This document shows positions 1 to 58,385 of a stretch of 58,385 nt of DNA, piece by piece; the stretch's first letter is position 1, and each line of letters opens with the position of its first letter. Made by a program: the position numbers and the translations under genes. The stretch covers positions 1 to 58,385 of the forward strand of contig JWZX01003227.1 of the NCBI GenBank assembly GCA_001275005.1, read 5' to 3'. The notes under the pieces were generated by a model. It worked only from the letters and a program-made list of their open reading frames with translations, had not been told where the DNA came from and searched no databases. This stretch comes from Chrysochromulina tobinii. Lineage: Eukaryota.

Positions 1-41
<41 letters not shown>

Positions 42-60
42 TGCTGCCGCCGCCGCCGCC
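1..60 (+). repeat. (GCC)n trinucleotide microsatellite, poly-Gly in the minus-strand CDS
   Basis: gccgccgcc run with two gct interruptions. Confidence 0.95.
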
Positions 61-1518
61 GCGCCCCCAGCATCCTCGTCAACATTCGGCGCTGTTGCGG
101 GGGCCTCCTGGAGCTGTTCGAGGCGGGCATGCAACTCGCGGCGTTCGCGCTGGTAACCGACGAGCTCCTCGTGCAGCAAGCTCTCGTGCTGCGCTGCGCG
201 CTGCACCTCGGCGCGCATCTCTCCGGCCGTTGCGCGCGCCAGCTGCAGCTTCACCTGACGAAACTCGAGCGCACGGAGTCATCAGGGCTCATCAGGGCTC
301 ATCAGGGCTCATCAGAGGTCATCAAAGGTCATCAGTGGCACTCGCCTCGAGTTTCGTCGCACTCCGCTGCAATTCGGCGAGCGACGCCTGGTTCTGCGAG
401 GATTGCGCAAGGAGATCCAGGATCTCAGAGTCTGGAGACAGCTCGACGCCGTCCTCGGCGCCGTCTGCAGATGCGACAACCTCCTTCGCAGCCAACCGCT
501 CGAGCTCGAGGCGCAGCTGCGCCACCGTGCGCCTCAGCTCGTCGAGCGCGTCGGTACAGTCGGCATCGCCGTCATGCTCGCCACCGGCGAGCGCGCCAAG
601 CTGAACCTCGACCCCCGCAAGCTCGCCCCGCATCGCGTCGCTCTCGATGCGCCGCAGCTTACGCAGCCGCTCCTGGAAGCTGCACAGCGTCGCGACTGTC
701 GACGACTCGAGCTCATCCAGCGCGCTCAGCACAGTCGCAGGGCCCGCGCATGCCGACGACTCGTCCGCCACGGCCGCCTCGACACCCATTTCAGCGAGCT
801 CCTCAGCGGTTGGCACGCGCTCAGGCACGCGCTCTAACAGCCCTCGGGCTTTCAGCCCTCGTGCTAACAGCCCTCGTGCGCGCTCAGCCACCTCCCCTTC
901 AGCGGCGGCCCTGGCTGTTTGCGCCATCTCCGCCTGCGCCTCCGGTGGCGGATCGTTCCTCTCGGCGCGCAGCAGCACCTGTTCGCGGTCCAGGTCGATG
1001 GCATCGCGGTCCTGCGCGCGCCGTCGCTCGAGCCATCGCAACACTTCGAGCAGCTCCATCGTGAAGCTCGATGAGCGCACGGAGAGCGACGCAAACTGCT
1101 CGGCGATCGAGTCGTCGGGCGAGAGTGCATTGAGCGGCGGCGGCTGGATCATCGCAGAGACAGGCAATCCCTTCGCCCTAGCCGCCTTAGCCGCCTCGGC
1201 CTCTGCAAACTCGACTGCAGAGGACCGGCGATACGTGTTGTGCAGCACAGCCGCGGTGCGCTCAATATTCTGCGCCGAACGGTCGAGCATCGTGTGCGAG
1301 AAGTTCTGCTGCTCGAGCATGCGCTCGAGTTGCTCGAGTCCGCGGTCGCCCAGCCCGGCCTCCTCGACAGCGGCACCGCTTCCACGGCTCAAGGCGTCGA
1401 GCTCCTCCTTGAGAGCAAGCAGCAGCTCGTGCAGCACCTGTTTGTCCACACCGAACACCGACTCGTCCCACATCGTCGGCACGAGCGGATCGAAGCGCGC
1501 GAGTGGATTATCGACCAT
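1..1518 (-). CDS. Hypothetical coiled-coil protein, 3'-partial (runs off the window start); exons 1518-346 and 254-1
   Basis: Removing a GC-AG intron at 255-345 joins ...SATKLE to VKLQLARATAGEMRAEVQ...ELHARLEQLQE, continuing the heptad-like pattern into poly-Gly. The start at 1518 (MVDNPL) is tentative. Confidence 0.65.
255..345 (-). other. 91-nt GC-AG intron with 10-nt tandem repeats and an inverted copy of the upstream exon end
   Basis: Sense junctions GAG|GCGAGT...TTTCGTCAG|GTG; internal TGATGAGCCC-type units; 257-269 is the reverse complement of 346-358; splicing restores the frame. Confidence 0.8.
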
Positions 1519-2873: not shown

Positions 2874-4694
<1,821 letters not shown>

Positions 4695-11023: not shown

Positions 11024-13137
11024 TCAGCCGGATGTGGGCGTGGGCGACTTGACGAAGCTCGCGACGCTGCGGTCGCCGTGCAGGTAGACCCAGAGCTTGC
11101 GCTCAGAGTCATACCGGCAGCACGGGTCGGCTTCATAGTGGAGCCGATCAAGCGCGCCCGAGGCGACGGTCGAGATCTGCGCGTCGTTGGCGCCGTCGGT
11201 GATGTAGTGCGACTCCTTGAGCAGCTCACACACGTCGGTGCGCGAGCCTTCGCCGCCGGGTAGTCGCGCGACCGCATCGCGAACGAGTGCTAGGAGGGTA
11301 GCAGCGGCCGGTCGTTCAGGCTGCAACAGGAAGTGCTCCCTCGCCTTGCCGCCCGCCTTCCGCCCGACGGGCGCGACAGTGGCAGTCGAGCCGTCTCGTA
11401 GAGTGTAGACGAAGGCGAGGTCGGGCTGCGCGTAACGGCGCGCTTCCTCCTCATGCAGCCGCGCCAGTTGCTCAGCCGAGCCCGGCGGCAGTGTGAGCGC
11501 CGCCTTGGGCGCCTTGAGCGGCGCGAGCCCGAGACCGCGCGCGGTACCGGTAATGCCCCCATGCTGCGCGAGGAAGTTTTCGTGGTGGAGCGCCTCGAGG
11601 CGGCGCAGCGCCTCGTCCGTCGACGCCTCGGGCGTCCCGACCCACCGGTAGCTCTGCGTCGGGTCGTCGAAAAGGAGGAGGGGCGCGGGCGGGGGTGCCG
11701 TGGGCGCCGCCGCGGGCGCGCCGCCCTCGGCGGCGCCACTCGATTTGACCGTTCGGGCGGCGTGGCAGTGCGCGGGCGTGGTCATGAAGATCAGGACCGA
11801 TCGGATATACGCGGCGAGCATGGTACCTTTTGGCAGTCGTGCCATGAGGCCTGCGGCCTGCGCCTGTATGGCCACCTGCTTGCGAATGTATTCGGCGGGC
11901 GCGAGGGCCTGCGGCACGCTCGCCATCGCGTCGCGCACGAGGGAGAAGAAGTTCACACCGCCGCCGACGCCGACGCCCTCATCGGCCTCCGCCCCGCCCG
12001 CCAGCGCGCCAGGGTAGCCGTAGCCGCCCAACGGTTGATCGGTTGGGCGGGGCCGCTTCAGAGGCGGGGCCACGGGCAGGCCTGTGCCGCCCGCAGTGCC
12101 TTCGAGCTCGTCGAGCATCTCATCATCTTCGTCCGAGAGCTCCCCGAGCATCTCATCGTCTTCTTCGCCGCCCGCTGCGCGCCGCGGCGGATAGCCGCCC
12201 ATGAGCGGCAAGGGCGGCGCGCCCCCTGTCCGGGCGCCCCCCTGCGACCCCCCCGTCCGGCTGCCCCCTCCGCCGCCACCGCCGCCGCTGGTGCCGGCCG
12301 CGTTGTGCACACCCGTCGGGCACAGCGGAGTCCCAATCGGGACGCCTGCCGACTTGGGGAACAAGGTGCCGCGGGAGCCACCTGCGCCGCCCGTGCTGCC
12401 TTGGATCTCGATGACGCCGCCGGCCGTGGAGCCCGCACGGCTGTCGCCAAGGCACGGCCGCCCGAGCGGCACGCCGACGCCTCCCGTCTTGGATCGCCGT
12501 ACCAAGCCACCGCTCGCCTTCGAGTACATGAGCGCCTCGTCCGACTTGCCCCTGCCCGACCCCTTGGGAAGCTTGGCCAGCTGCGGCGGCGGCGGCGTCC
12601 ACGTGCGCTTGATGTAGTGGAGCTGATGCACCATGGCATTGTGGTGCTCACGCTGCTTGTCCACCCAGTCGATGCGCCGCTGTGCCTCAGCTTGCTCAGC
12701 GGCGAGCACCGCCTCGGCTTCGAATTCGCCCGCGAGAAGCGCCGTGTGGAAGTGCTCGATCGGAGTGCCGAAAAAATGGGCTTCCGTCGCTCCGACGTGC
12801 TTCTCAATGATCTGCTCCGCCTGCGCGTTTATTTCCTCCTCCGTGCTCTGTGGCGAAACCGGCAGCAACGCCGAAAGCTTCTGTCGATCCGCCGCCGGCA
12901 GCCCCCGCCACATTTCGGGCGAGATGACCTGCAAAGAGACGTTTGTGGGGTTGCACAGGCTGAGAAGGCTGCCCGGGCACGTTTGCGGGCTGCGCGCTGC
13001 ACGCAGGAGGACATGGCGCGCGCGATGCGCACCGAGCGCAGATCTGAGACGTCCAGCTCGCTGAGCAGACTGATAAGGTCGGGCGGAAGACTCAAAGACG
13101 CCGAGGTCGACCTTGTTATAGAGATACGTGCCGACAT
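11024..13137 (-). CDS. NFRKB: NFRKB / INO80 subunit G-like protein; exons 13137-13033 and 12928-11024
   Basis: N-terminal DEUBAD-like segment (VISPEMWRGLPAADRQKLSALLP...FFGTP), FFSLVRD, and LVRDAVARLPGGEGSRTDVCELLKES...GALDRLHYEADPCCRYDSERKLWVYLH. A GT-AG intron at 12929-13032 joins an ATG exon in frame. Confidence 0.85.
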
Positions 13138-14703: not shown

Positions 14704-16236
14704 ATGGTGAGTGCCTCCATTCACAAAGGTGTATGCGGCGCTCACATCTGCATGATGCGCACGACGCTGCTCTCTGGGCTGGCGATGTGCACAACTCCGA
14801 TCCACCAAGCTGCTGTGGTGCTGCTTCGACCTGGCGAGGACCACACTCTTGCACATGGATTACAACATGCCCTTGGAAAGATGCCTCTCGTTCACATCCA
14901 CGGCGATGATGGGAGGGCAGCCGCACAGGTAGACAGCATCAGTGGTGTGCGGGCCATCTTTGAGCTCGGCGTCTGTAGCCGATCGTCGATACCGCTGCTC
15001 GAGCTGAGCGAGGCATTGGGCGCGAGCCTTTACCGATATCAGCCCAGCGTGGCGATGTTCAAGCGGCTGCATGGCACCGATGGCCCAACATGGATCGCCA
15101 TCGGAACGGCGAGCGCCGCGTCAGAGGAGATCATCGCCGACGCTAATGGCTGGGGTTATCTCGCTGGTGACGAGGAGCCCGTACTCGATACCAAGGCGTT
15201 GACTGATGCTGAGCTCAGAAGGCTAATGACCCTGCCTGCAGAGCGCAGCAGCGACGAGCAGACCATAGCCGATGCGATGAGCACGCCTATCGTCATAGGT
15301 GAGCTTGGCTATCAAGTGATGTCGTCCGTCGAATTTCAGCAGAATGGGCGCCACACCTCTTGGACCACAATAGCAGCGCGCGTGCTCCTCTTCGGTTCCA
15401 CCGAGCCGCCACACTCGTATACTCTAGCGGATGGCACACCCTTTCCAGCCGAAGGTTCGGATGGTGTCTTTGTCTCCGCTGCCACTGGCGCCCCGCTTTT
15501 CGACAGCGTGCAGCGAAGGCGCAGCACGTCGGGATGGCCATCGTTCGTGGCGACCGGAGGCACGCTGTCGAAGCACCTCAAGCCCTCGATGGACTACAGT
15601 GCGGGCACTGCGCGTGTCGAACTCGTAGAGAGCCACACAGGCCTCCACCTCGGGCATGACCTGGGCGGCGTGTACTGCATCAACGCGGCTGCCCTGGCCT
15701 TTGTGCCACGCGGTGAACCGATGCCGGTGTGGCTGCCGGAACCACCCGCTCCCGCCTTGGCAGCGCTCCTGAGGACGCATCGAGGCACAAGGTGGCTCGG
15801 GCGCGCGACTGTGGCCACCCTCGCCGCCGGCTGCTTTTGGCACTTCCGCCGCTCGCTCGCTGCCATTCCCGGTGTGCTCGTGGCGGTTGCCGGCTATTGC
15901 GGAGGGGAGTCCGAGTCGCCGACGTATGAGGATGTGTGCACAGGCCGGAGCGGCCACGTCGAGGCGGTCCAAGTGGCCTTTGACCCTTTGGTGCTCACGT
16001 TCACCGAGCTGCTCGAGTCCTATTGGGGCATGGTGCCGGACCCGACATCGAGCTACAGGCAGGGAATGGACATCGGCCCACAGTACGAGAGCGCCATATT
16101 TTTCCATTCGGACGAGCAGCGACAGCTCGCGCTGCTGTCGCGCGAGCGTGCCGGCCGACGGATCGATGCGAAAATCGTCACGAAACTGCGCCCGGCGGGC
16201 CACTTTTGGATGGCTGAGGTCGAGCATCAGCGATGA
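14704..16236 (+). CDS. Methionine sulfoxide reductase MsrB-MsrA fusion with an unknown N-terminal region
   Basis: MsrB motifs PLFDS, SGWPSF, HLGH, YCINAAAL; MsrA motifs AAGCFW, PTYEDVCTGRSGHVEAVQV, QGMDIGPQYESAIF, AEVEHQ. Start could be 14704 or 14752. Confidence 0.85.
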   Translation: MVSASIHKGVCGAHICMMRTTLLSGLAMCTTPIHQAAVVLLRPGEDHTLAHGLQHALGKMPLVHIHGDDGRAAAQVDSISGVRAIFELGVCSRSSIPLLELSEALGASLYRYQPSVAMFKRLHGTDGPTWIAIGTASAASEEIIADANGWGYLAGDEEPVLDTKALTDAELRRLMTLPAERSSDEQTIADAMSTPIVIGELGYQVMSSVEFQQNGRHTSWTTIAARVLLFGSTEPPHSYTLADGTPFPAEGSDGVFVSAATGAPLFDSVQRRRSTSGWPSFVATGGTLSKHLKPSMDYSAGTARVELVESHTGLHLGHDLGGVYCINAAALAFVPRGEPMPVWLPEPPAPALAALLRTHRGTRWLGRATVATLAAGCFWHFRRSLAAIPGVLVAVAGYCGGESESPTYEDVCTGRSGHVEAVQVAFDPLVLTFTELLESYWGMVPDPTSSYRQGMDIGPQYESAIFFHSDEQRQLALLSRERAGRRIDAKIVTKLRPAGHFWMAEVEHQR

Positions 16237-25862: not shown

Positions 25863-27938
25863 TCAGTCTTCACACGAGTCTTCATCTTCAACCTTCCCCG
25901 CCTCCTCGTTTTCAGATTCGCTCTCAGGATCGCGGCTCCGCCGCCGCTGCCTTGCGCTTGCGCTCATCGTTTCCAGCAAGCCGCCGCGCCGCGCCGCTGC
26001 CTGCAGCCGCCCTCGTCGGACCGGCAAGACATCATCAATGAGTAGCAGCTGCGCGAGGCAGCCCAGGACGCCATCGACGAGCTGCAGTTTGAGGTCGAGT
26101 GGCTCGAGGATGCCGGCACTGGCAGCATCGGACAGCGACTGCAGGTGCACCTCGCCTACCGCACTCGGCGCCTGCGGCGGCACCAACACGAGTCCCAGCG
26201 CGCACCGCGACGACCGATCGTGCGCAGCTCGCAGGCTCTGTAGCACCGACGGCCAGCGGCTCGCATGCGCCGAGAGCGCGCGCGCTTGCGCCGCATTCAT
26301 GTGCAGCTGTCGCACGGAGCGACGGACGCGCTGTGGTGAGCACTTGCATGCAAGGCGGCTCATCCGTGGCAATCAACGTACCTGTCGCACGGGAGCGAGG
26401 AGCGCGGCGGAGAGGATCTGCAGCACGGCCGTTTGCTCAGGAAGGAGCGCCGTGGCGCTCGCGCTCGTACGCGCTTGCTTCTGCGCGGCTACCAACCGTC
26501 GCACGCTCGCCTCGAGCTGCATCTCAGCCGCCCCAGCGCCCGGGAGCGCCAGCAACACTCTGCGCCCCCACTCCTTTGCGTCCGCGTCAGTCCTCGTGCG
26601 CCCCGCGTCCAGCCACAGTCGCAAACTCCGCAGTGCACGGCCGACGGCGGCAGCGTACTCGTTTGCAAGTCCAGGCGAGGTAGCACGCACGACGAGCGAG
26701 CACAGCTGCGGCGCGCTCGCGAGCTGCACGCGCACGTAGCCCCGCCCGCCCAAGCGCAAGCACTCGAAGCTGCATCCTGGCTGAGCGAAGCCCGCAGTCG
26801 GTGTGAGCAGCGCCGTGAGCTCTGCCGGCCGAGGCCAGCGCTGAAGGATGGAGATGCCAGCCGCGGTAGCGAGCGCGCGCAGGTCGTCCTCATCGACGCC
26901 GGGCACGGCGCATACGCCGTGCTGTGCGCACAATTGCACCGTCAGCGCGCTAAGTGGTGCACCGCTCAGTAACAGCCGCACGCCGGCGGCATGGGCTGTC
27001 TGCACCCACGCCTCCCGCGATGCATGCACGAAGTCCACCCACCGGCCGGCCGCGCTGTCTATGCCGTTACAAGTAACGGCCGCGCTGTCTATGCCGCCGG
27101 CAGGCGCTTGATCCGCACTGACCACCACCTCGGCGGGCACGCCAGCCTCCACAGCCCTAGCCTCCGCTGCCGTCTGAACCTCAGGCGCTGCCGCATGGGC
27201 ACCGAGCAGCAGAAGCACACCATCCTTGCCGAACACTGGCATCAGCTCCGAGGACGGCGTGCCGCCGATGATTCGCCCTGCGGTTGCGCACGAGCGACTC
27301 GGCTGCGCACCGGGTGCGGCGACGAGTGCCAAGCACCTCGCGCGCGCCACCGTCCCGTCGAGTTGCCACGTGGCCGCTCCAGCAGGCAGCAGCGTGGCCG
27401 CTCGGGCAGGCAGCACCGCCTCGATGAGCGCCTCGGAGAGCGAGGCCGACGCGCTCGCACCCAGCTGCACGCCGAGCGCCGTTGCGGCTACACGATACGC
27501 ATCGGCACGAAAGGCGTCATCGCCGTCCAGCGTGCGCACCGCCTGCTCTCGCCAGCACTCTGTGAGGTTGTGCGGCAGCACCTCGAGCTGCAACCAGCAG
27601 ACGGCCCTTGACAAGCGCACCCGCCATGCCGCTTGGCGGTCCTTAGGAAGCGCTTGCAGCTGTTGGCCCACCTCGGCGCGTGCAGCGTCAAGCATAAGAG
27701 CGTAGGCTTTCACACCGTCACCGGCTATCTGCTCATGTGCTGATGCGGCTTCGAGCATGAGGCTCTCGATGGGGTGCTGGCTGACGATGGAAGAGAGAAT
27801 GCTCGCGCCACTACAAGTTAGCACTGCCTTACGCGCGGCAGTCAGTAGGAGTTTCTCGCGAGCCAATGGACCGAATGAGGAGCCGAGCGCGCTGCCAAGG
27901 AGTCCGACGTCCCACTTGTGAAAGTCGTAGACGGCCAT
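25863..27938 (-). CDS. BBS10: Chaperonin-like Bardet-Biedl protein, best resembling BBS10; exons 27938-26382 and 26306-25863
   Basis: SSFGP, QHPI and AGDGVK (BBS10-type GDGxK); after splicing 26307-26381 the TCP-1-like C-terminus GILEPLDLKLQL...LLLIDDVL is in frame. Confidence 0.7.
26307..26381 (-). other. 75-nt GT-AG intron with the palindromic motif and a direct exon-end duplication
   Basis: CAG|GTACGT...CAG|CTG; exon end TCGCTCCCGTGCGACAG versus intron end TCGCTCCGTGCGACAG. Confidence 0.85.
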
Positions 27939-30933: not shown

Positions 30934-33900
30934 TTAGCTCCGTGACGCGTACGTTGCGCTTGGGGCCGGCGCGGGTGCGGGCGCGGGCGCCGCGAGCACA
31001 TTCTTGAACGAGACGAGCCGCTCGGCACGCTCGCGATAGGTGCGGAGGAGCTCGGGGAGGAGCTCTTCGAGCTTCTCGTTCTCGGCGATGGCCGAGCGGA
31101 ATGTGACCTTGGCCAGGCCCGTCGGCTCGCCGGCCGCCGCATCGACACCGACGTGGTGCGTGAGCGTGCCGCCCGTCATCTTGTTCATGTGCAGCTGGAT
31201 CTTGAGGGAGCCTACTGGTAGGGCACGCGATGCCTCACGAGAGGCCTGGCGGCGCGCGAGGATGGCGTGCAGCGGCTCGTAGAGGGGGAGCACCTGCGCG
31301 AGGCCGAGGGGCTGCGGAACGAAGGCGAAGCAGCCCGGCTGCGCCTCGCCATAGAGGAGGCGCCACACCTCACAGAGCGTCAAGCGCAGCCGGGCGTGCC
31401 CCGCCGAGCCTCTCCCCATGAGTTCCCACAGAAGGCTGGCGGCCGCAATGGGCGCCGCCTCCCCGCGTTGCGCGAGCCGGCGCCGCTCGCGCTCGAGCCC
31501 CGCGCGGTAGCTCACGGCGGCGCGTGCATGCCTGTCCCTTGCCTCGTCCTCATCGTCGAGGCCGTCCTCGCCGACCGCACGCGCGCCGCGCACCGCCTGG
31601 CTCCCCTCCGAGTGTGAATTCACAGCCTGCTTGAGCAGGCGCAGCACCGCTTGCCAGAGCCACAGCTGCTCTAACGGCTCGTCCTTCCGCCGCTCCGAGA
31701 GCCCGAGGGCGAGCCCGAGCACGGACGTCGGGCGCGGGTGCGACGGCTCGTGCCGCACGGCGCCCGTGCCGCCCGTGCCGCCCTCGCGCCCAGCCCCAGC
31801 TGTGAATTCACACTCGGCTCCAACCGCTTCATCGCGAACGGCTGCCGCCTCGTCTGGCCGCTCAGGTCCGGCGAGAAGGGTGAGCCGGAGGAGGCAATCC
31901 GCGGCGGCCAGGCGCACGGACGGCAGCTGGCCGGCGGCCTCGTAGTGCCAGTAAGTGCGCCAGCTGGGGGTGGAGGCGGTGTCGGCCGAGGCGGAGGCCG
32001 AGGCGGAGGCGGGGGCGGAGGCGGGGGCGGAGGTCGATGCGGAGTGCGCGCGTGCAATCTCCACTGTACAGAGCGCATGCAGCGCGGCGCGGCAGAGGGC
32101 GCCGCCGTCGCGCGCGCCGGCGCCACGCCCTTCGAACGAGACGGAGACGAGCCGAAGCTGCCGCGTGATTCGGGCAACGACCTCGCGTTTTGCCCCTGGG
32201 TGGCGGCAGCGCGTGGTCGCGAGCGCCCGGAGCAGCGCGCCCACGTAGGCGCCATCGTCGAACTCGTTGCTCTCGTTGTCGTTCTCGTCGATGAGCTGGA
32301 GGAGCAGCTCGAAGGCGCCGGCCGGGGTGAAGCCCGAGGCGTCGCGGCACGTGCCGAGCGCCTCGACGAGCGCCTTGAACGTCGCGTACTCGCTCAAGTC
32401 CCCAAAATCGTTCGGGAGGACGTGGCCGCCCGTGTCGCACAGGAGCTCGCGCGCGAGCGCCACGAGCGCCTCGGCAGCCGCGCCCTCCGACACGAGCGCC
32501 GTGAGGCGCGCGAGCGCCGCAACGGCTGCGGTGCGCACGCGGAAGTACACGCTCCGGTCGCGCGCCACGTCGACGAGTGTGTGGACGGCCGTTGGGTTGG
32601 GAAAGGTAGCGAGGGCCGCCGCCGCCGCCTCTCGCGAGGGCACGTCCCGATCAAAGAGCAGCTGCGCCGTGCACATGCTCTCGGGCATGCCGGCCCACGC
32701 GCCATCGCCGGCGCGCCCGGTCCACGTGACGCGCACTGGCAGCTCGAGCCGCGGGTCGAGGCGTACCCAGAGCAGCGGGAGCAGCTGCCACGGCGCGGAG
32801 CTCGCCTCGTCCGCATCGTCGACGGCGGCGCGCGAGCGCTTGAGATGGCGCCGTCGCCGATGCGAACTGATCACCACTTCAATGAGCTGCTGCCGATCGA
32901 CTGGGCTGAGCTTCTTGTCGATCGTGCGGCTCACGCCGCCGTCGGCGCCGTCGTGCTCACCCCACCCGATGACGAGGGGGAACTCTCCGATCTGTGCGGC
33001 GGCCAACGGCTTGGGCGAGATCACGACGAGCTCGAGGCGGTGCTGCGGCTGGTTGAAGGCGAAGTTGGCGCGCAGCGTGGGGCACGGCTTGGCGGCGTAC
33101 ACCCACTCGCTCGCGAACGAGGCGCCCAACCGCACTCCCTGCGCCACGCATGCCGCCAGCAGTGCCGCCGTCGACGAAATGCGCTCAGGACGGCGCTCAT
33201 GCATCCCAGCCACCGCGGACGTCGAGGCGGTCGGCGTGCCGGCGTGCGCTGCGCAGCTCGATTCGACTGGCCGCCTGTTCGGCCGACTGGGCAGCAGATG
33301 CGCGAGCAGCCGGCTGAGCGACTGTTGGCCGCCGTCGGAGCGGATGGCAGCGGCCTCGATCATTCGCCACACGAGGGGCGCCTTGCGCCGGCGGTACTCG
33401 GTGAAGAGCTGCTCGGGATGGAGCCCACCGCCCCACCGCTCAAGCTCGGTGCTGTCGGGCACGAGAGCCTCTGGAGGCGCTCCCGCCTCCGTGAGCCACG
33501 CGCGCTCCTCGCTCAGCCGATGAGCTGCCTCGTCCGAACCGAACAGTGATCATCAGCGATCATCAGTGGCAATCAGTGGTCATCAGCGGTCATCATCAGT
33601 GGTCATCATCAATGGACACTCACCTGCCTCGTCCGAGCCAAACTCATGACGCGTGTACTCGTGCACCAAGCGCCCCTCGAGAGCCATGAGAAGCCATGCC
33701 TCGCGCCAACCGTCGAGCCACAAGAGCGCGAGCAGCCACGAGCGGCCAAGCGCACGGCCGAGCTCGATGCAGCTCGGGCGCGCCGGCTCGAGCGCCTCGG
33801 GCGAGTGGAGCCAGTGAGAAGAGAGCAGCACCAGCCCTCCAAACGATGCTGTCTCCTCACGAGCTCCTTCGAGCACCACGAGCACGTGGCGTGCGTACGG

Positions 33901-42153: not shown

Positions 42154-44564
42154 ATGAAACCTCGCCGCCTCATCACCTGGCTCGGTTCGGAGCACGACAT
42201 CAGCTCCGACGCGGACATCCAGCTCGTGACCGGTATTCCCAAGCAGCATGCTGTGACGCTGGACCACAAAGATGGCGGCGGCAGACTGACATTTGTCTTT
42301 GACATTCGGTCGCTGACTCCAGGCTCGACTGCGCCACCGCTGCCACACATTCCGCCGCTGCCACAGCCGGATGAGCCGCCGCCGGCCGACTCGTCAACCA
42401 GCGTCCTGCGTGCTCGCGCCGACATGCTACGCAGGCGCGGATTGGATCATCTCCAGGGCGTGAGGCGCAGCGTGCGCGAGCAGCACGCGTCGCTGCGCGC
42501 GCTCGACGCCGCATTGCAATCGCTGCGCTGCGCGAGCGCGCACGGCGCGCCCACCGAGGCGCTCAGCGACGAGTGGCGCGGCGTCGTGCAGGCTGTTGCG
42601 GGCGAGCGGGCGGCCTCCGAGGGGCTGCCGCTGCAGAGCTCGCCCGAGGCGGGGCAGCAGCTGCTGCTCGCGAGCGAGGCGATCAGCCATCAGCAGGTGG
42701 CGCGCCAGCAGACAGCGTGCGCGCTCGAAGCCGACCTGAGCGACGACCTCGGCGCACAGCTCGCCACGATGGAGGCGAATGAGGCGCAGCTGCACGAGCT
42801 GCATGCAACAGTGATCGCGTCGCAGGCGATGCTGCGCCAACACATCCACCAGCGGCTGCAGCGCATCACGCAGTTGCAACACCACATGGCCGCGCTCTAC
42901 AGCCGTGCAGCCGCCGCCGCCGCCGCTGCTGCCGCCGCCGCCGCTGTCGCTCAGTCTCTCTCACTCCATGAGCCAGCGGCATCGTCGAAGCAGCCGACAT
43001 CGAAGCCGCAGCCGCCTTCGACACCGCCACCGCCGTCGACGCCAACGGCGCCCACCCCCCCGGCGGTGCCGGCCGCTCGCGCGCCTCCCACGCCGGCCGA
43101 CGCGCCGCGCTCGGCCAGTGGCACTGCTCACGGCACTGCCACTGGCGTGCCCTCGGTCGAGGGCGTTTCGTCAAAAGGAGACGGGCTCGAGAGCGTTTCG
43201 TCAGAAGGAGACGGGCTCGAGAGCCGCGCAATGGAAGATTTGGGCGACGGCGTGCTGATTCCGCGGATGATCGCGCGCCTGACGACGGCGGAGCGCACGC
43301 CTACGCTCGAGCTGCGGCCCGGGCTCAGCAGCATAGGCGAGTACGCCGTCGAGCGCTGCATCGGCACCGGATCCTTTGCTCAGGTGTACCTGCTACGGCG
43401 TCTCTCGAGTGCGGCGGTTCGTCAAAAGGCGAGCGGGGCGGGCGTGCAGCCGCCGCAGGCGCCGAGCAGCCTGGCCCCGGCTGGCCTGACGACAACAGCG
43501 ACGCTCCTCGCGCTCAAGGCCATCGATCGGCGGAATCTGACGCCCAAGACGGCGTCGCTCCTCGCCTCGGAGGTGCGCATCTTGCATGCAATCTCTCACC
43601 CGAACATCGTGCAGTTGCATGCGGTGGCCGCCTCGGCGCGCCACGTGTTTCTGTGGATGGACGCGGCGCACACGGACCTTGCCGCGCTCATCCGCGCGCG
43701 CACCGCCGGGGCCGGCGCGCGCGCGCCGCCCGACGAGCTCGAGGCCACCGCACTCCTTCGCCAGCTCGTCGACGGCCTATGCTACCTGCGGGTACGCAAG
43801 CTGCTCCATCGCGACATCAAGCCGCAGAACTTGCTCCTCTTCTTCCCGGACGCCCACGAGGACGCGTACGAGGGCGCTCTCGCGGGCGCGGGCGCTGTCG
43901 TGGGCGGCGCCAGCCCTCATCCCGTGGCCGACGGCTCTGCTCGCGCGGCGCGCTTACGGATCGCCGACTTTGGCCTCGCGCGTGCCCTCGATGGCGCGTC
44001 CATGGCCCGTACCGTCTGCGGCTCGCCCCTGTACATGGCGCCCGAGGCGCTGCGCGGGCAGCCCTACGGCGCCGCCGCGGAGGTCTGGTCCGTGGGCGTG
44101 TGTCTCTTCGAGATGCTCTCCGGGCGGGTGCCTTACAGCGGCGCGACAGTGCCCGAGCTATTGGCCGCCATCGATGCGGCGCCACGTGGCCAGCCGCCCG
44201 CCGTGCCGGGCGTGTCTGCCGCCGCGACGAAGCTGCTCATCGCAGCGCTTCAGCCTGTGCCCGAGGCGCGCATCAGCATCGAACAGATGGCGACGCATGC
44301 ATTCCTCTGTTCGACGCATGCATGCCTTGACGATGCATGCGTCGCCCTCGACGGTGCCGGTGCAGCGCCCGGTGCAGCGCCCATCCGCGCGGCGGCAGCA
44401 CCAGCTATGTCGCCGGCGCTGCCCCCAGTGACCGCGAGAGCCGCAGTGCAGGCTGAGGCCACCCAGGCTGAGGCCACCCAGGCTGAGGCCACGTCGAAGT
44501 GTACCACAGGTTCCACACGCTCCCTCGATGCTGGTGGGCTCAATGCTGGTGGCGGGCCCGTTCT

Positions 44565-44606
<42 letters not shown>

Positions 44607-45827
44607 CGCCTTGGGTGAGACGGCGAATGGCTTCATGACGGTCGGGCCGCCTTCGACCCTCGCGGCCGGGAGCAGCTTCCTCCTCGAGTGGGCTCTGACC
44701 AGCCAGCCGGAGACGGCCGTGCTCGAGACGGCCGTGCGTGCCCTCACCGCCGAGGTGCGCCATCTCGAGCTCGAGCTCACGCGCCGTCTCGAGCACGAGC
44801 AGCAGCGGGCGGCGGTTACGGCGGAGGCGGCGGTTACGGCGGTTACAGCGGTTACGAGATCGGAGCCCGAGGGCGCTCACGAGGGCGCTCAGAGCGCTGC
44901 CGAGGGCGCTCACGAGGGCGCTCAGAGCGCTGCCAGGCAGCGGCTGCTCGCCGCCCTCCAGCGGCTCGTTAGGATGCTCCCCTCCGCTGCGAACGCCTCC
45001 GCCCCCTCCCCCAACGGCGGCGCTGTCGTGGGCGTGGACGCTATCGTGGGCGTGGACGCTGTCGTGGGCGGCGCGAACGCCTCCGCCCCCTCCCCCAATG
45101 GCGGCGCGGCCGCCGAGGCCGCGCCCGCTCCTGCCGCCGCCAGCGCCTCGAGAGAGAGACGCGAGGAAGCGTTGGTGGCCGAGGCGCTCGAGGGCGCGCT
45201 TCGGGCCCAAAAGATCTTCCGCGACAAGGTGGAGGAGTGCCGTCGGCTGCGCGCGTCCATGCGGCGCTCTCCGGTGGTGACGAACCCCGCGCGCTCGAGC
45301 GATCGCTCGGGGTTAGTCACCACCGGATTCCGCTTCGACGACCGTGTGGCCTTCGTGCGCCGCGCCAGCGTCCCCCGGGGGAGTGCCCCCGGGGGGAGTG
45401 TGGCCGCTGTGGGCGCCGGGTTGGGCGCTCCCGGGCAGCTCGTGGCGGCGGGCGGCAAGGCAGCGGCGCCCCATTCAGTGCCATTGTATGTTGCATTGCG
45501 TGAAGGTGCCGCTGGACCTCTCCCTCCTTTCTCTGGTGGGCGTCTCTCTGCATGCAGGTGCTCACCACGGCGCCCTCGCCTCTCCCCACAGGTGACGCAG
45601 GGCCTCCCTACTTTCTCTCGAGGGCGTCTGAGGAGAGCCTGTGCCGCGCGATGCACTGTACGCATGCGAGCCTGCCGCCCGTCGCCATCGGCAAGGTGGT
45701 GCACGTCGAGAAGCTGCACGCATCCCCCGAGAACGCGGCGGCTCTTGGCTTGCGCCCTGGCGCGCCCTTCAACGTCATCACGGCCGAGATGCACACCGAC
45801 CTCGCGCCCGAAGTGACGGGAAGGTGA
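42154..45827 (+). CDS. ATG11/FIP200-like scaffold with an embedded ATG1/ULK kinase domain; exons 42154-45505 and 45592-45827
   Basis: Kinase motifs IGTGSFAQV, ALKAI, HRDIKPQNLLL, IADFGLAR, TVCGSPLYMAPE; Claw-like C-terminus after splicing; N-terminal helical region resembling ATG17/ATG11. Confidence 0.8.
45506..45591 (+). other. 86-nt GT-AG intron with the palindromic motif (alternative in-phase donor at 45536)
   Basis: GAAG|GTGCCG...CCCCACAG|GTGACG; splicing shifts into the frame of ORF 45552-45827. Confidence 0.8.
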
Positions 45828-46302: not shown

Positions 46303-46381
46303 CTGAGCCGCACCTCAGCAATGTATCGCAATGTATCGCAATGTATCGCAATGTATCGCAATGTATCGCAATGTAGCGCAC
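46303..46381 (-). other. Putative 79-nt 3'-UTR intron: (GATACATTGC)x5-6 with an exact 15-nt flanking direct repeat
   Basis: ctgagccgcacctca at 46303-46317 and 46382-46396; sense junctions CAG|GTGCGC...CTCAG|. Confidence 0.65.
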
Positions 46382-47804: not shown

Positions 47805-49130
47805 GGCCCGGCATGGCGCAACGCCCGATGGACCACGCTCGCCTCCTCCTGCAGCGCATGGGCCTTGAGACCAATGGTGCGCATCATCTCGAGTGCCGCG
47901 TCGAGCTCGTCGCGCATCGCGTACATGAGCGCATCGCGCGACGGCCCCACCGCCTGCTCAAAGTCGGCAGCTTCCGCCTGCTCGAAGTCGGCGGCTTTCG
48001 CCTGCTGCTGCCGCTCCTGCTGCTGCTCCTCGAGCCTCAGCCGGAGCCGCCGCATCTCATTCTGCTGCTGCATGTGCTGCAGCATGTGCTGCTGCTGCTG
48101 TTGCTGCTGCTGCTGAAGGAGCTCCTCCCTCTCCAGAAGCTCCGCGCGATGGCGTTCGCGCTCCTCCTGGCGCTGACGCGTGGCCTCGGCTTCGTCCCAC
48201 GCCTTCTGCAGCTCCTGTGCCTGAAGAAGGAACTCGTCCTGCGCGCGGCGCTCCGCCTGGCGCGCGGCGACCGACCCTGCCTCGTGCATGCGACGCTCCT
48301 GCCCGAGTCACACGCCGAATTCTCGCAATTAGAAGCCAATCTGAGGCAATCAAGGGTCATCAGAGGACATCAGTGGTCATCACCTGCTCCAGCCGCGCGT
48401 CCTCCGCTTCGCCGAGCACAGACGCGGCCACGCGTGCTTCGAAAGCGGCGCGTGCCTCCCGTTCCCATCCGTCCCACGCGGACGAGGTGCGCCGGAGGGC
48501 CTCGAAACGCGCGAGCAGCTGCGGCAGCGTGCCGATCGGGTTGATCACGGGGCGCCGCTGCTGCGCGAGGGCCGTGGCATCCGCTGCAGAGAGGGCCTCC
48601 TTCCACATCAGCAGCAGGCAGCCCGTGGTTCCGGCGCGGTGGGCGCCAGCAAGGCAGTGCACGAGCACATTGTTGCCGGCGCTGAGCGCCTCGTCGACGA
48701 AGCGGAAGAGCGGCGTCACGAAGTCGAGCAGTGACCGCGAGTCGCCTGAGTGGCGCATGTGGTGTGCCGCGTGGAACCGCATGTACTTCACGCCGCCATC
48801 ACAAAAGTTGGGCAGGTCGTCGGTCGCGTTCACGACGTGCGTGATGTCGGCCGCCTTGAAGTAGCTCAGGGGGCCGCGGGCTGCCGATTCGTTGCCCACG
48901 AAGATGATGCCGCCCGTGGTAGGATCACGCCAGAGGGCGTCCATGTCGTGGTAGCTGGCGCTGTCGCCCTCGCCGAGCGTGGCAAAGAGCTTGCGCGCCT
49001 CGGCGGAGTAGTCGTGCTCGGCCGGGCCCGGCGAGTGCTGCTCGAGAAGCGCGAAAAGCCGCCGTGCGGCGGCGGAGTCCATGCCAGCCGCTGCTGATGA
49101 GCGCATTCGCGCGCGGTCCTCACTGTTCAT
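46508..49130 (-). CDS. Dual-specificity phosphatase with coiled coil, acidic tract and WW-like domain; exons 49130-48384 and 48298-46508
   Basis: VLVHCLAGAHRA (HCx5R), ITHVVN, RRPVINP; WW-like PGWKVMRTAAGEPFWFNEISGSTS; intron 48299-48383 joins two ORFs in frame. Confidence 0.85.
48299..48383 (-). other. 85-nt GT-AG decamer-repeat intron
   Basis: CAG|GTGATGACCACTGATGTCCTCTGATGACCC...GGGCAG|GAG; only GCAG is shared with the exon end. Confidence 0.85.
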
Positions 49131-55890: not shown

Positions 55891-58385
55891 TCAGAGCTCG
55901 GCTAGCCGACTGAGCGCCGCTACCTCAGGCGACTGGGACTGCCACGCCTGCTCGATGCGCTCCTGACAGCGCACCCACGCAGGCAACGGAACGGTGCCGT
56001 CCGCATTCGTCTCGTCCACAGCACGCAGGATGTGGCGCCCTTCCTGCTCGAGGAGTGCCTTCCGATGAGGGATGCAATCAGAGGCCATCAGCGGCCATCA
56101 GCGGTCATCAGCGCACCTGCTCGAGAAGTGCGTGCAGCTGCGTGCGTCGCTTCGCGTCCCACTCGCGCGCGATTGTCGAGTATGACGGGCCCGCCGTGTG
56201 GTCCGCCTCCAAGAAGGCGAGGAAGGCCTCCGGGTGAGCACCAGCGCCTTCGAGCAGCATCCGAAAGCGCATTGTGAATAGCTCACACACGCATTCGGCA
56301 ATCTCGGCGCCGTGGCGCGAGTCGCTCGTGAGTGCCGAGAGCACACGCACGATGAGGAGGCGCGTCTCCGTAACGGCTGCCGGTGTAACGGCTGCCGGTG
56401 TAACGGCTGCCGGTGTAACGGCTGCCGGTGTAACGGCTGCCGGTGTAACGGCTGCCGGTGCGACTGGTGTAACGGCTGCCGGTGCGACTGGTCCCAAGAG
56501 CGGGCGCAGCAGCAGCACGAGGCCGCCCAGTCGGAGGAAAGCGAGCACCGCGGCCGGCGAGCGGCGCACAAGGTCGACGACGAGGCCCAGCGAGCCGGCG
56601 GCCAGCGTTGGGGTGCGCGTGCTCAACGCGACGAGGCCCAGCAGATGAGCGCCCTTGACCGACGAGGCGAACTCGATGGCGCCCACGACGGCGCCGCCTG
56701 GCTTGGAGAGGGCCTGCAGCACCTGCAGCACGAGTGAGAGCACCGAGAGCGGCATCGGCGAGCGCACGCTACCGAAGAAGAAGTCGGCCGCCGCGACGCA
56801 CGCGCGGTGCGTGCACAGGGACGCATGCAGCGTGAGGAGCTGCAGCAGTGCCTTCCACATCAGGGCCGCGTGACGCCCCAGGCGCACAACGGCCGTCTCG
56901 GCATCGAGCGCGTCGTCCTGGGCGCATATCGCGTCGTCCTGGGCATATAACGCGTCGTCCTGGGCGCCTCGGGCGCTCGTGGCCGCCGCCTCCTCCTCCT
57001 CCTCCTCCTCGGCCTCGATTGCAAATCGTGGCTGCGAAGCGCTCATCACGGCGCTGTGGAGCGGGCGAGACAGGTCCCGAAGCGCCGTGATGAGCGCCAC
57101 CAGGAAGTGGCCGGCCGCCGCTGCCGTCGCGAACGAGAACTTGCCGTCCGCGGCCACGAAGGGCTCGAGGAACAAGCCGCCCACATTGAGGTCCGTCTCG
57201 GCTGCCGCGAGCTTCGCAAGCAGTGCGGTGGGCGCCCAGCACGGCGCCCAGCCCACGTCACTCCTCACCGGCGCCGTGCTGGGCGCCGTACTGAGCGCCG
57301 TCCTGAGCGCCGTGCTGGGCGCCGTGCTGGGCCCGCCGCCGCGACCGTCGCCCACTCCGAGCAACTCGACGATCGGGCCCAGCTCGTCCTCCTCGAGATC
57401 ACATCGGAGATTACATCGGAGGTTGCATCGGAGCGACTCGACGATCGGGCTCAGCTCGTCCTCGAGGGCTAGGCGGAGCCGCGACCGCCGCTCGGCGTGC
57501 CAGATCAGGAGCGGGTTGGAATGATTCGCGTCGAGCTGAGCGAGCAGCGCGCTCGCCTCCCCAAAAGACATGCACGCGAGCTCATCCACAAACTGCGGCG
57601 ATTAGTGGCAATTATTGGCAGTCAGTGGCAACTGGTGGAAATTAGTGACAATTAGAGGCGATTAGTGGCAATTAGAGGCAATTAGAGGCAATCAGTGGCG
57701 CCCACCTGCGGCGCGAGGCAGCGATCGAGGAGCTCTTCCGCCGCAGGGCCCACGGTGGCGTCGGCGAGCAGTGCGCAGAGAGTGTCGACTGCCGCCGCGC
57801 GCACTTCGATCGAGGCGCCTTGGAGGAGCGGGTCGGGGAGCGGGTCGGGGGGCGGGTCGGGGGGCGGGTCGGGGGGCGGGTCGGTGGGGGCGATCGGGTC
57901 GGTGGGGGAGGTCGGGGAGGGGCTCTCCGGCAAGTAGTCGAGCAGTAACGTGGAATGGCCAAGGACATGGAAGAGACACGAGAGCACGACTCCTCCGCGC
58001 ACCACCGCCTCCGCCACGCTCACAACGGCGCCATTTGGCCCGACCGCACCACTGGGCCCGACCGGTGCGTTGTCTCGCCGGTCGCTCAGCACGGCGCGAG
58101 GCGGGCGCTCAGTACGGCGCCACGGGCGCTCCGACGAGGCGCCGTCCTGAGCGCCCGTGCTCTCGAGCCTGATGAGGGCGGCAATCAGGCGCAGCGTGCC
58201 CGCACGCCCCCTCGGGGGTAGTGGTGCGTGCGTGTAAGAGCACGTGGAGCCGCGGGAGCGCCTGCAGTGCGAAGCGCACGGCCGCGTCGCGCGCCGTCGT
58301 GAGCGCCCCGGAGGCCGCTCGCGCTGTCTCGGGCGCATCGGCCGTCGCGGCGGCGCGCGCCGTCGTGAGCGCGGTGGGCGTGGGT
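55891..58385 (-). CDS. 5'-partial helical-repeat protein resembling the RME-8/DNAJC13 C-terminal region; introns 57593-57705 and 56044-56116
   Basis: LDANHSNPLLIW and LNVGGLFLEPF resemble RME-8 NPxLIW and ELxVGxxF segments; two introns join three ORFs in frame; upstream exon structure unresolved. Confidence 0.55.
56044..56116 (-). other. 73-nt GT-AG decamer-repeat intron with a 14/15-nt direct exon-end duplication
   Basis: Exon end GCACTTCTCGAGCAG versus intron end GCACTCCTCGAGCAG. Confidence 0.9.
57593..57705 (-). other. 113-nt GT-AG intron almost entirely of 10-nt repeats, with an 8-nt direct duplication
   Basis: About ten CTAATTGCCW/CTGATTGCCT units; CGCCGCAG ends both the exon and the intron. 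Confidence 0.9.

Follow-up and report, generated by a model that had tools for sequence, protein, structure and literature searches.

The window, the whole 58,385-nucleotide stretch analysed here (positions 1 to 58,385 of Chrysochromulina tobinii contig JWZX01003227.1, assembly GCA_001275005.1), opens inside a gene for a coiled-coil-like protein that is read from the minus strand and interrupted by a short intron carrying a tandem array of decamers. A Pfam search with this protein returned no family. The exon 1 product is 99% identical to P0001, whose cluster includes a Chrysochromulina parva model. The elements of the locus are as follows.

346..1518, minus strand: coding part of exon 1 of the coiled-coil-like gene, 391 codons from Met
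346..358, minus strand: exon arm, the final 13 bases of the exon, covering the end of the Ala codon and Thr-Lys-Leu-Glu
255..345, minus strand: GC-AG intron of the decamer-repeat type, 91 nt, phase 0, with an RNA joint
344..345, minus strand: GC donor, from the sequence and the RNA joint
279..335, minus strand: decamer array, 5.7 units of the CTGATGAGCC type (Tandem Repeats Finder, period 10, 91% matches)
270..278, minus strand: 9-nt linker, also present in the intron copies of locus L067
257..269, minus strand: intron arm, an inverted copy of the exon arm, starting with the palindrome CTCGAG and the same in both L067 copies
255..256, minus strand: AG acceptor, the sole direct duplication here (2 nt)
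1..254, minus strand: start of exon 2 (VKLQLAR..., first bases GTGA), with about 370 open codons in locus L062 past the window edge

The first-pass annotation of this DNA had proposed a GC-AG intron with its junction at 254/346, and the RNA bears this out. Contigs from three of three RNA runs (X16, X12 and X14) skip the 91 nt exactly, the listed joint of 253>345 being equal to 254>346 within the stated slide. The element behaves as a U2-type GC-AG spliceosomal intron, GC..AG being removed from the RNA and the reading frame kept. The spliced joint appears in none of the one DNA run; that run, X8, has no cover at 110-250, so the joint could not appear there. An in-frame alternative acceptor at 264, which would add the residues FRQ, is used by no RNA contig and has no counterpart in the orthologue. 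GC donors are frequent in haptophytes, reaching 56-65% in Emiliania in the available text of PMC4028052, so the GC donor of this intron is ordinary.

P0003, an intron-less orthologue with 47% identity, reads TASQLEAKLRIAR over the intron site with no gap and is colinear with the exon arm region (TASQLEAKL). Because P0003 is gap-free across the site, the intron did not lengthen the coding sequence, and the possible FRQ extension does not go back to the ancestor. A 99%-identical locus, L068, carries an identical copy of the 255..345 intron, and all 21 listed proteins of the host gene (41 members) end TKLE-ASATDDL-stop. For an intron-less host gene in a sister lineage, no match more than 90% identical spanned the site; such a protein would be longer than the 686 residues to which the protein search reached.

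The reverse complementarity first noticed between the end of the intron and the end of exon 1 is exact: 257-269 matches 346-358 at 13 of 13 positions. Under an order-3 Markov model the 13-mer has a probability of 5e-8, or 4e-5 after allowing 784 offsets, and the true donor stands alone among 969 minus-strand AG/G sites of the window in inversely matching the intron's last 40 nt over more than 9 nt. The window contains 8 perfect inverted pairs of at least 13 nt within 100 nt, at 6 places, whereas 30 Markov simulations averaged 0.33; since this background lies about 20-fold above the model, a cautious chance figure for the arm is about 1e-3. The supposition that the inverted copy exceeds chance therefore survives the correction, and a non-random match is supported.

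A decidedly unlikely reading takes the inverted appearance to be in part a coincidence: the 6 nt of CTCGAG would have been duplicated directly and joined to the family's usual TCRTCAG end, so that the intron would still be shared between genes but would owe nothing to fold-back. CTCGAG is indeed identical in both orientations, and other decamer introns end in CCTCATCAG or CCCTCGTCAG (L050, L067), but the other 7 bases must still come from the exon in the right register (Markov p 6e-5), no RNA contig uses the acceptor that follows CTCGAG, and the orthologue is without FRQ.

Pairing of the two arms in the pre-mRNA, as originally suggested, is predicted or not according to the length folded. The 13-bp RNA duplex amounts to -20.7 kcal/mol and is predicted with a probability of about 0.98 in a 161-nt fold, falling to 0.11 in 311 nt and vanishing (0.00) in 538 nt; folding of the whole region gives z = -0.62. 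A role of the stem in splicing was considered and is unsupported, as the predicted fold varies with its context and no retained-intron contigs occur at 266-277, where contigs report presence only.

The intron can be compared with others of the decamer type for copies of the upstream exon end. Besides 255..345, the following introns of the window were examined.

26307-26381, minus strand: decamer-type intron, direct copy of 11 nt
33525-33623, minus strand: decamer-type intron, direct copy of 13 nt
46303-46381, minus strand: decamer-type intron, direct copy of 15 nt, with a different decamer, TACATTGCGA, and the same layout
56044-56116, minus strand: decamer-type intron, direct copy of 9 nt
57593-57705, minus strand: decamer-type intron, direct copy of 8 nt
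48299-48383, minus strand: decamer intron lacking an exon copy in either orientation
12929-13032, minus strand: RNA-confirmed GT-AG intron that has no decamers and repeats no exon sequence

RNA confirms the 255 and 12.9-kb introns, and the remaining ones were called from sequence. Among eight decamer-type introns, seven from the window and one from L067, six repeat the exon end in direct orientation (11, 13, 15, 9, 8 and 12 nt), 255..345 alone has an inverted copy, and one, 48299-48383, possibly older or decayed, has neither kind. Over these eight introns the tally of inverted against direct copies, which the first-pass annotation had envisaged genome-wide, comes to 1 versus 6 and makes the direct copy the rule and the inverted copy the exception. 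This count sets aside L050 (no copy), the non-decamer control 12929-13032 (no copy) and a complex L062 intron, as well as both L067 end arrays and L024/L069/L071, which come without a clear upstream exon. The L062 intron is a later intron of the same host gene, at L062 11096-11350, beyond the window start; its decamer array is surrounded by a 41-nt direct copy of the upstream exon with one mismatch, and its second part is short, intron-like and flanked by a copy of about 21 nt of the downstream exon.

No duplication of fixed length accompanies these introns: only the 2-nt AG is duplicated at 255..345, the sister introns have direct copies of 8-15 nt, and one in L062 reaches 41 nt. Because the lengths of the copies vary, they argue against a transposase footprint, as had been proposed from the inverted copy at the outset. 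The intron at 255..345 carries an inverted copy of the sequence next to the presumed break, as in fold-back synthesis and SD-MMEJ. Yeast breaks receive fold-back inverted insertions of 5-34 bp with 0-5 nt at the far junction (available text of PMC11724301), and SD-MMEJ leaves direct or inverted motifs (available text of PMC7407515). The likeness to such insertions extends to short direct or inverted flank copies of variable length and a far-junction microhomology of 0-5 nt; unlike them, the filler here consists of a family-like donor and a decamer array, and the product would later have spread to another gene. The decamer side of the linker can pair over 4 bp with intron positions +3..+6, plus 2 bp at the donor, with 4 unpaired bases between, and the linker is a possible fold-back primer. 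Further perfect 13-nt inverted repeats within 100 nt, at 15499-15572, 44289-44346, 44718-44797, 57039-57097 and 57231-57332, may be more fold-back scars. The fold-back origin advanced in the first-pass annotation is accordingly sound in itself; one further gene at the least, however, holds the intron together with its arm, so by itself the arm is no proof of local copying.

That other gene, whose exon end resembles the one described here, is more informative than the arm and had gone unmentioned at first pass. Alignment of the sequencing runs showed that other DNA contigs match 251-312. A metagenome scan gave 13 loci, comprising four of the window locus, one L067 and eight unrelated matches; the X8 look-alike loci are not among them. 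L067 contains two head-to-tail intron copies with identical linker, arm and AG, followed by GLQRADG....

L067 1329-1398 and L067 1258-1328, minus strand: tandem intron copies with no exon between them and AG-GT at the junction

Recursive splicing could occur at this AG-GT junction, judging from its letters. The gene of L067 is a UreD-UreF fusion (Pfam UreD/UreF) that shows no similarity to the coiled-coil-like host protein (best E 33). Its intron site is seen in two states among proteins. In the P0028 cluster (23 members), 14 of the 15 listed members are intron-less and read PPTKLD-GLQ; these proteins read into a later intron and so look genomic. In the P0049 cluster (45 members), 13 of the 15 listed members, among them C. 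tobinii KOO31705.1, have PPTKLE, followed by the intron start [A/V]SAT[D/E]DL-stop (8 A-SATDDL, 2 V-SATDDL and 3 V-SATEDL). The coiled-coil-like gene reads SATKLE before and VKL after its intron site, versus PPTKLD and GLQ in the intron-less ureD-ureF. The two genes hold the same intron after T-K-L-[D/E].

This shared motif has a chance of 1.5e-5 at a site (13,046 codons, long ORFs picked by GC3), and about 3 such 12-mers are expected per 25 Mb of coding DNA, which agrees with the few copies seen. Two points weigh against the shared site: the link of L067 to the ureD-ureF 5' exon is drawn from proteins, since L067 ends inside the repeats, and many decamer introns open with these same codons. 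Indirect observations suggest identity of 12-14 nt between the two exon ends in the DNA itself. An RNA contig (X12 record 7) follows the window over 316-359, differing at 2 positions, before it diverges; X8 DNA depth in 357-369 is 54.9 against 44.6, equivalent to one extra single-copy contig reaching 359; and 359 is where the CCG proline codon before the motif would end the match. X8 record 23 may represent a third locus.

The residue before the intron differs in its history between the two genes. Three of four ureD outgroups have Leu-Asp and the fourth Leu-His, so that in ureD, to go by this comparison, Asp is older than Glu. Glu occurs in ureD only together with the intron, and in the coiled-coil-like gene it is shared with P0003. 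Identity between the ureD sets with and without the intron is about 89%, which makes it probable that they represent sister lineages and not alleles. At the positions of TK in this lineage, the ureD outgroups have AV, AR, AV and IE, and a 7-residue insert relative to the outgroups adjoins the shared site. P0029/P0047 have a probable further intron 19 nt downstream of that site, and further lineage-specific decamer introns lie at L067 1-200 and 901-995 (minus strand), with a 78-nt exon-plus-intron tandem unit. The ureD-ureF site is an apparent hot spot of intron gain.

We regard it as about an even call that the arm was born by fold-back and that the finished intron was later copied into ureD-ureF by repair using a short match, the birthplace of the arm probably being the coiled-coil-like gene. 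The starting point is the observed one, a real intron in a protein left colinear with its intron-less orthologue. A decamer-family donor and array would have filled a break in this exon, after which the growing strand would have folded back, copied 13 exon bases and rejoined at the AG. Later, a broken ureD-ureF end (...Thr-Lys-Leu-Asp) would have annealed to this exon end over 12-14 bases, the last exon base and the intron would have been copied and the ends rejoined, changing Asp to Glu. At L067, synthesis apparently continued for four bases (GTGA) into exon 2 of the coiled-coil-like gene, and re-priming at the intron start would have given the second tandem copy with its GT donor. The sharing of the intron is well supported, as a single event (n=1), and from it we infer the route, direction and mechanism of the transfer.

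Several observations bear on the direction. The tandem junction of L067, AG-GTGA, matches exon 2 of the coiled-coil-like gene, and the ureF-side exon begins GGCC; the junction weakly suggests the coiled-coil-like gene as template, and since GTGAGT is also a consensus donor, this evidence is only suggestive. Glu arrives with the intron and Asp is older in ureD, as co-conversion predicts, unlike precise reverse splicing. No intron-less allele is seen in the intron-bearing lineage, so the change from Asp to Glu could also predate the intron, or follow it through selection for a better donor. The arm's lysine codon is the rare AAA (13% use), which counts against the proposed direction; with TK being new in the ureD lineage, it faintly suggests that the intron served as template for the exon and not the reverse. 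Also against that direction, the ureD intron is more variable, with GC and GT donors, two decamer variants and tandem copies, and could be older.

It is accordingly worth weighing, though rather unlikely, that the intron was born in ureD-ureF or at a third locus and that the coiled-coil-like gene was the recipient of the same homology-primed copying. Three variants exist at ureD (8/2/3) versus 21 of 21 identical sequences in the coiled-coil-like gene, the ureD site with its insert and probable downstream intron looks break-prone, and X8 record 23 hints at a third locus. A birth in ureD is opposed by the arm itself, which matches the Glu form, new in ureD but old in the coiled-coil-like gene, and by the GTGA tandem junction, which fits the coiled-coil-like gene as template.

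It is highly improbable that both arms are the terminal inverted repeats (TIRs) of a small DNA transposon, the left one having been turned into exon or having replaced the end of the exon. Such an element would account for the perfect 13-nt inverted repeat that bounds the unit here and probably also in ureD, as well as for the rare AAA codon and the novelty of TK in the ureD lineage, and TIR introners are common (available text of PMC12130899). However, the arms have no flanking duplication, removal of both would break the frame, P0003 is colinear with no 13-nt gain, and the left arm is, at the protein level, coding sequence already present at the empty sites, the intron-less ureD already reading TKLD.

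Another reading assigns the arm an active part. That Chrysochromulina decamer introns home between unrelated genes via exon-end look-alikes of 12-14 bases, with the inverted arm as address or targeting guide, is in our judgement distinctly unlikely. In its group II-like version, in which the excised intron or its DNA copy pairs with the target exon end and selects its insertion sites in this way, much as a group II intron does through its exon-binding sites, we hold it to be very unlikely. The arm can pair with each of the two known sites over 12-13 nt, with the duplex energy given above, and an address of 12-13 nt fits the low copy number. The geometry, on the other hand, appears wrong for reverse splicing, since the helix would put the intron's 3' end 13 bp off the junction, and synthesis primed by the arm would insert the intron backwards. 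The change of the target from Asp to Glu is unexpected under precise reverse splicing, the predicted pairing is lost in longer folds, and 7 of 8 decamer introns are without such an arm.

Copying from the coiled-coil-like gene into ureD-ureF by a short match, the reading we prefer, invites comparison with known systems. Intron transfer by gene conversion is described for Chironomus globins, Aspergillus and Mycosphaerella in the available text of PMC3443670 and PMC3296678. As there, an existing intron would have been copied into an intron-free site via exon homology; unlike there, where transfer is known between paralogues or pseudogenes (3 events in the available text of PMC3443670), the two genes are unrelated, with no protein similarity and Pfam UreD/UreF versus none, and appear to share only 12-14 bases. 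The candidate exon homology consists of the shared TKL[D/E], with the D to E change linked to the intron and DNA identity indirect. A literature search, in which subscription journals were mostly missing, found no report of a spliceosomal intron passing from one gene to an unrelated one by way of short exon homology.

Introners offer a second comparison. Family 5 of a Chrysochromulina sp. TARA MAG has a 4-bp TSD and no TIR, carries its 5' splice site and co-opts the 3' site (available text of bioRxiv 2022.06.06.494994). The intron described here resembles introners in that near-identical introns occur in unrelated genes (window and L067), the donor is on the element and the AG matches the insertion site; it differs in having no fixed TSD, only 2-3 copies (2 loci shown and a third hinted) and targets with a long common motif. 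At least 5 copies per family is the introner criterion as cited in the available text of PMC12403724. Supplement file 7 of PMC12130899, as far as available, lists 0 introner families for C. tobinii GCA_001275005.1, and related haptophyte families may be described in the supplement of PMC9860276, of which part was available. The Xylariales sister stwintrons, with 10-nt near-terminal inverted repeats and sites reported as random (available text of PMC12403724), are alike in being near-identical introns across genes with a short inverted repeat near their ends; unlike the present case, where one arm is exonic and the sites are similar, both of their arms are intronic and their sites random. The present intron shares with group I/II introns a sequence-defined target and an exon base changing with the intron, and differs from them in being spliceosomal and in having neither an ORF nor a ribozyme core, nor any known endonuclease.

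Homing of group I/II introns proceeds to a sequence-defined target, with co-conversion of the flanking exon. Group I/II intron homing is treated in the available text of PMC3192709. The origin and spread of new spliceosomal introns is a long-standing open question, and the source of most intron gains is untraceable (available text of PMC3443670). This case brings together a likely donor and a recipient, a sister lineage whose site is empty, and an altered exon base. If the proposed route is true, intron families can expand without a transposase, via repair needing about a dozen matching exon bases, and some catalogued introners might be repair copies. Such introns also have a practical consequence in that they break gene models: at the shared intron, the ureD-ureF models of C. 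tobinii and C. parva either stop short or are spliced wrongly.

Read et al. reportedly noted in 2013 intron repeats of 10-11 nt in Emiliania. Two viral scans for decamer arrays gave 0 loci. A scan of prokaryote genomes returned 55 loci, only two of which, L050 (on a MAG contig labelled Gemmatimonas) and L024, look algal by eye; these haptophyte-type arrays in bacterial MAGs are likely eukaryotic contamination, and further search of the two genomes holding them gave no extra complete intron. Several of L003-L055 are short CTGATKRCCN arrays found in many bacterial genomes, intergenic and often arranged as facing repeats, which are probably convergent with the algal decamer. UreD and UreF are fused as one gene in this algal group (P0028, P0031, P0050-P0052, P0066). 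Elsewhere in the window, the RNA runs show transcription of an intron-less ORF at 2891-4680 on the minus strand, which has a zinc knuckle at its C terminus and which from its motifs we take to be DEAD-box helicase-like.
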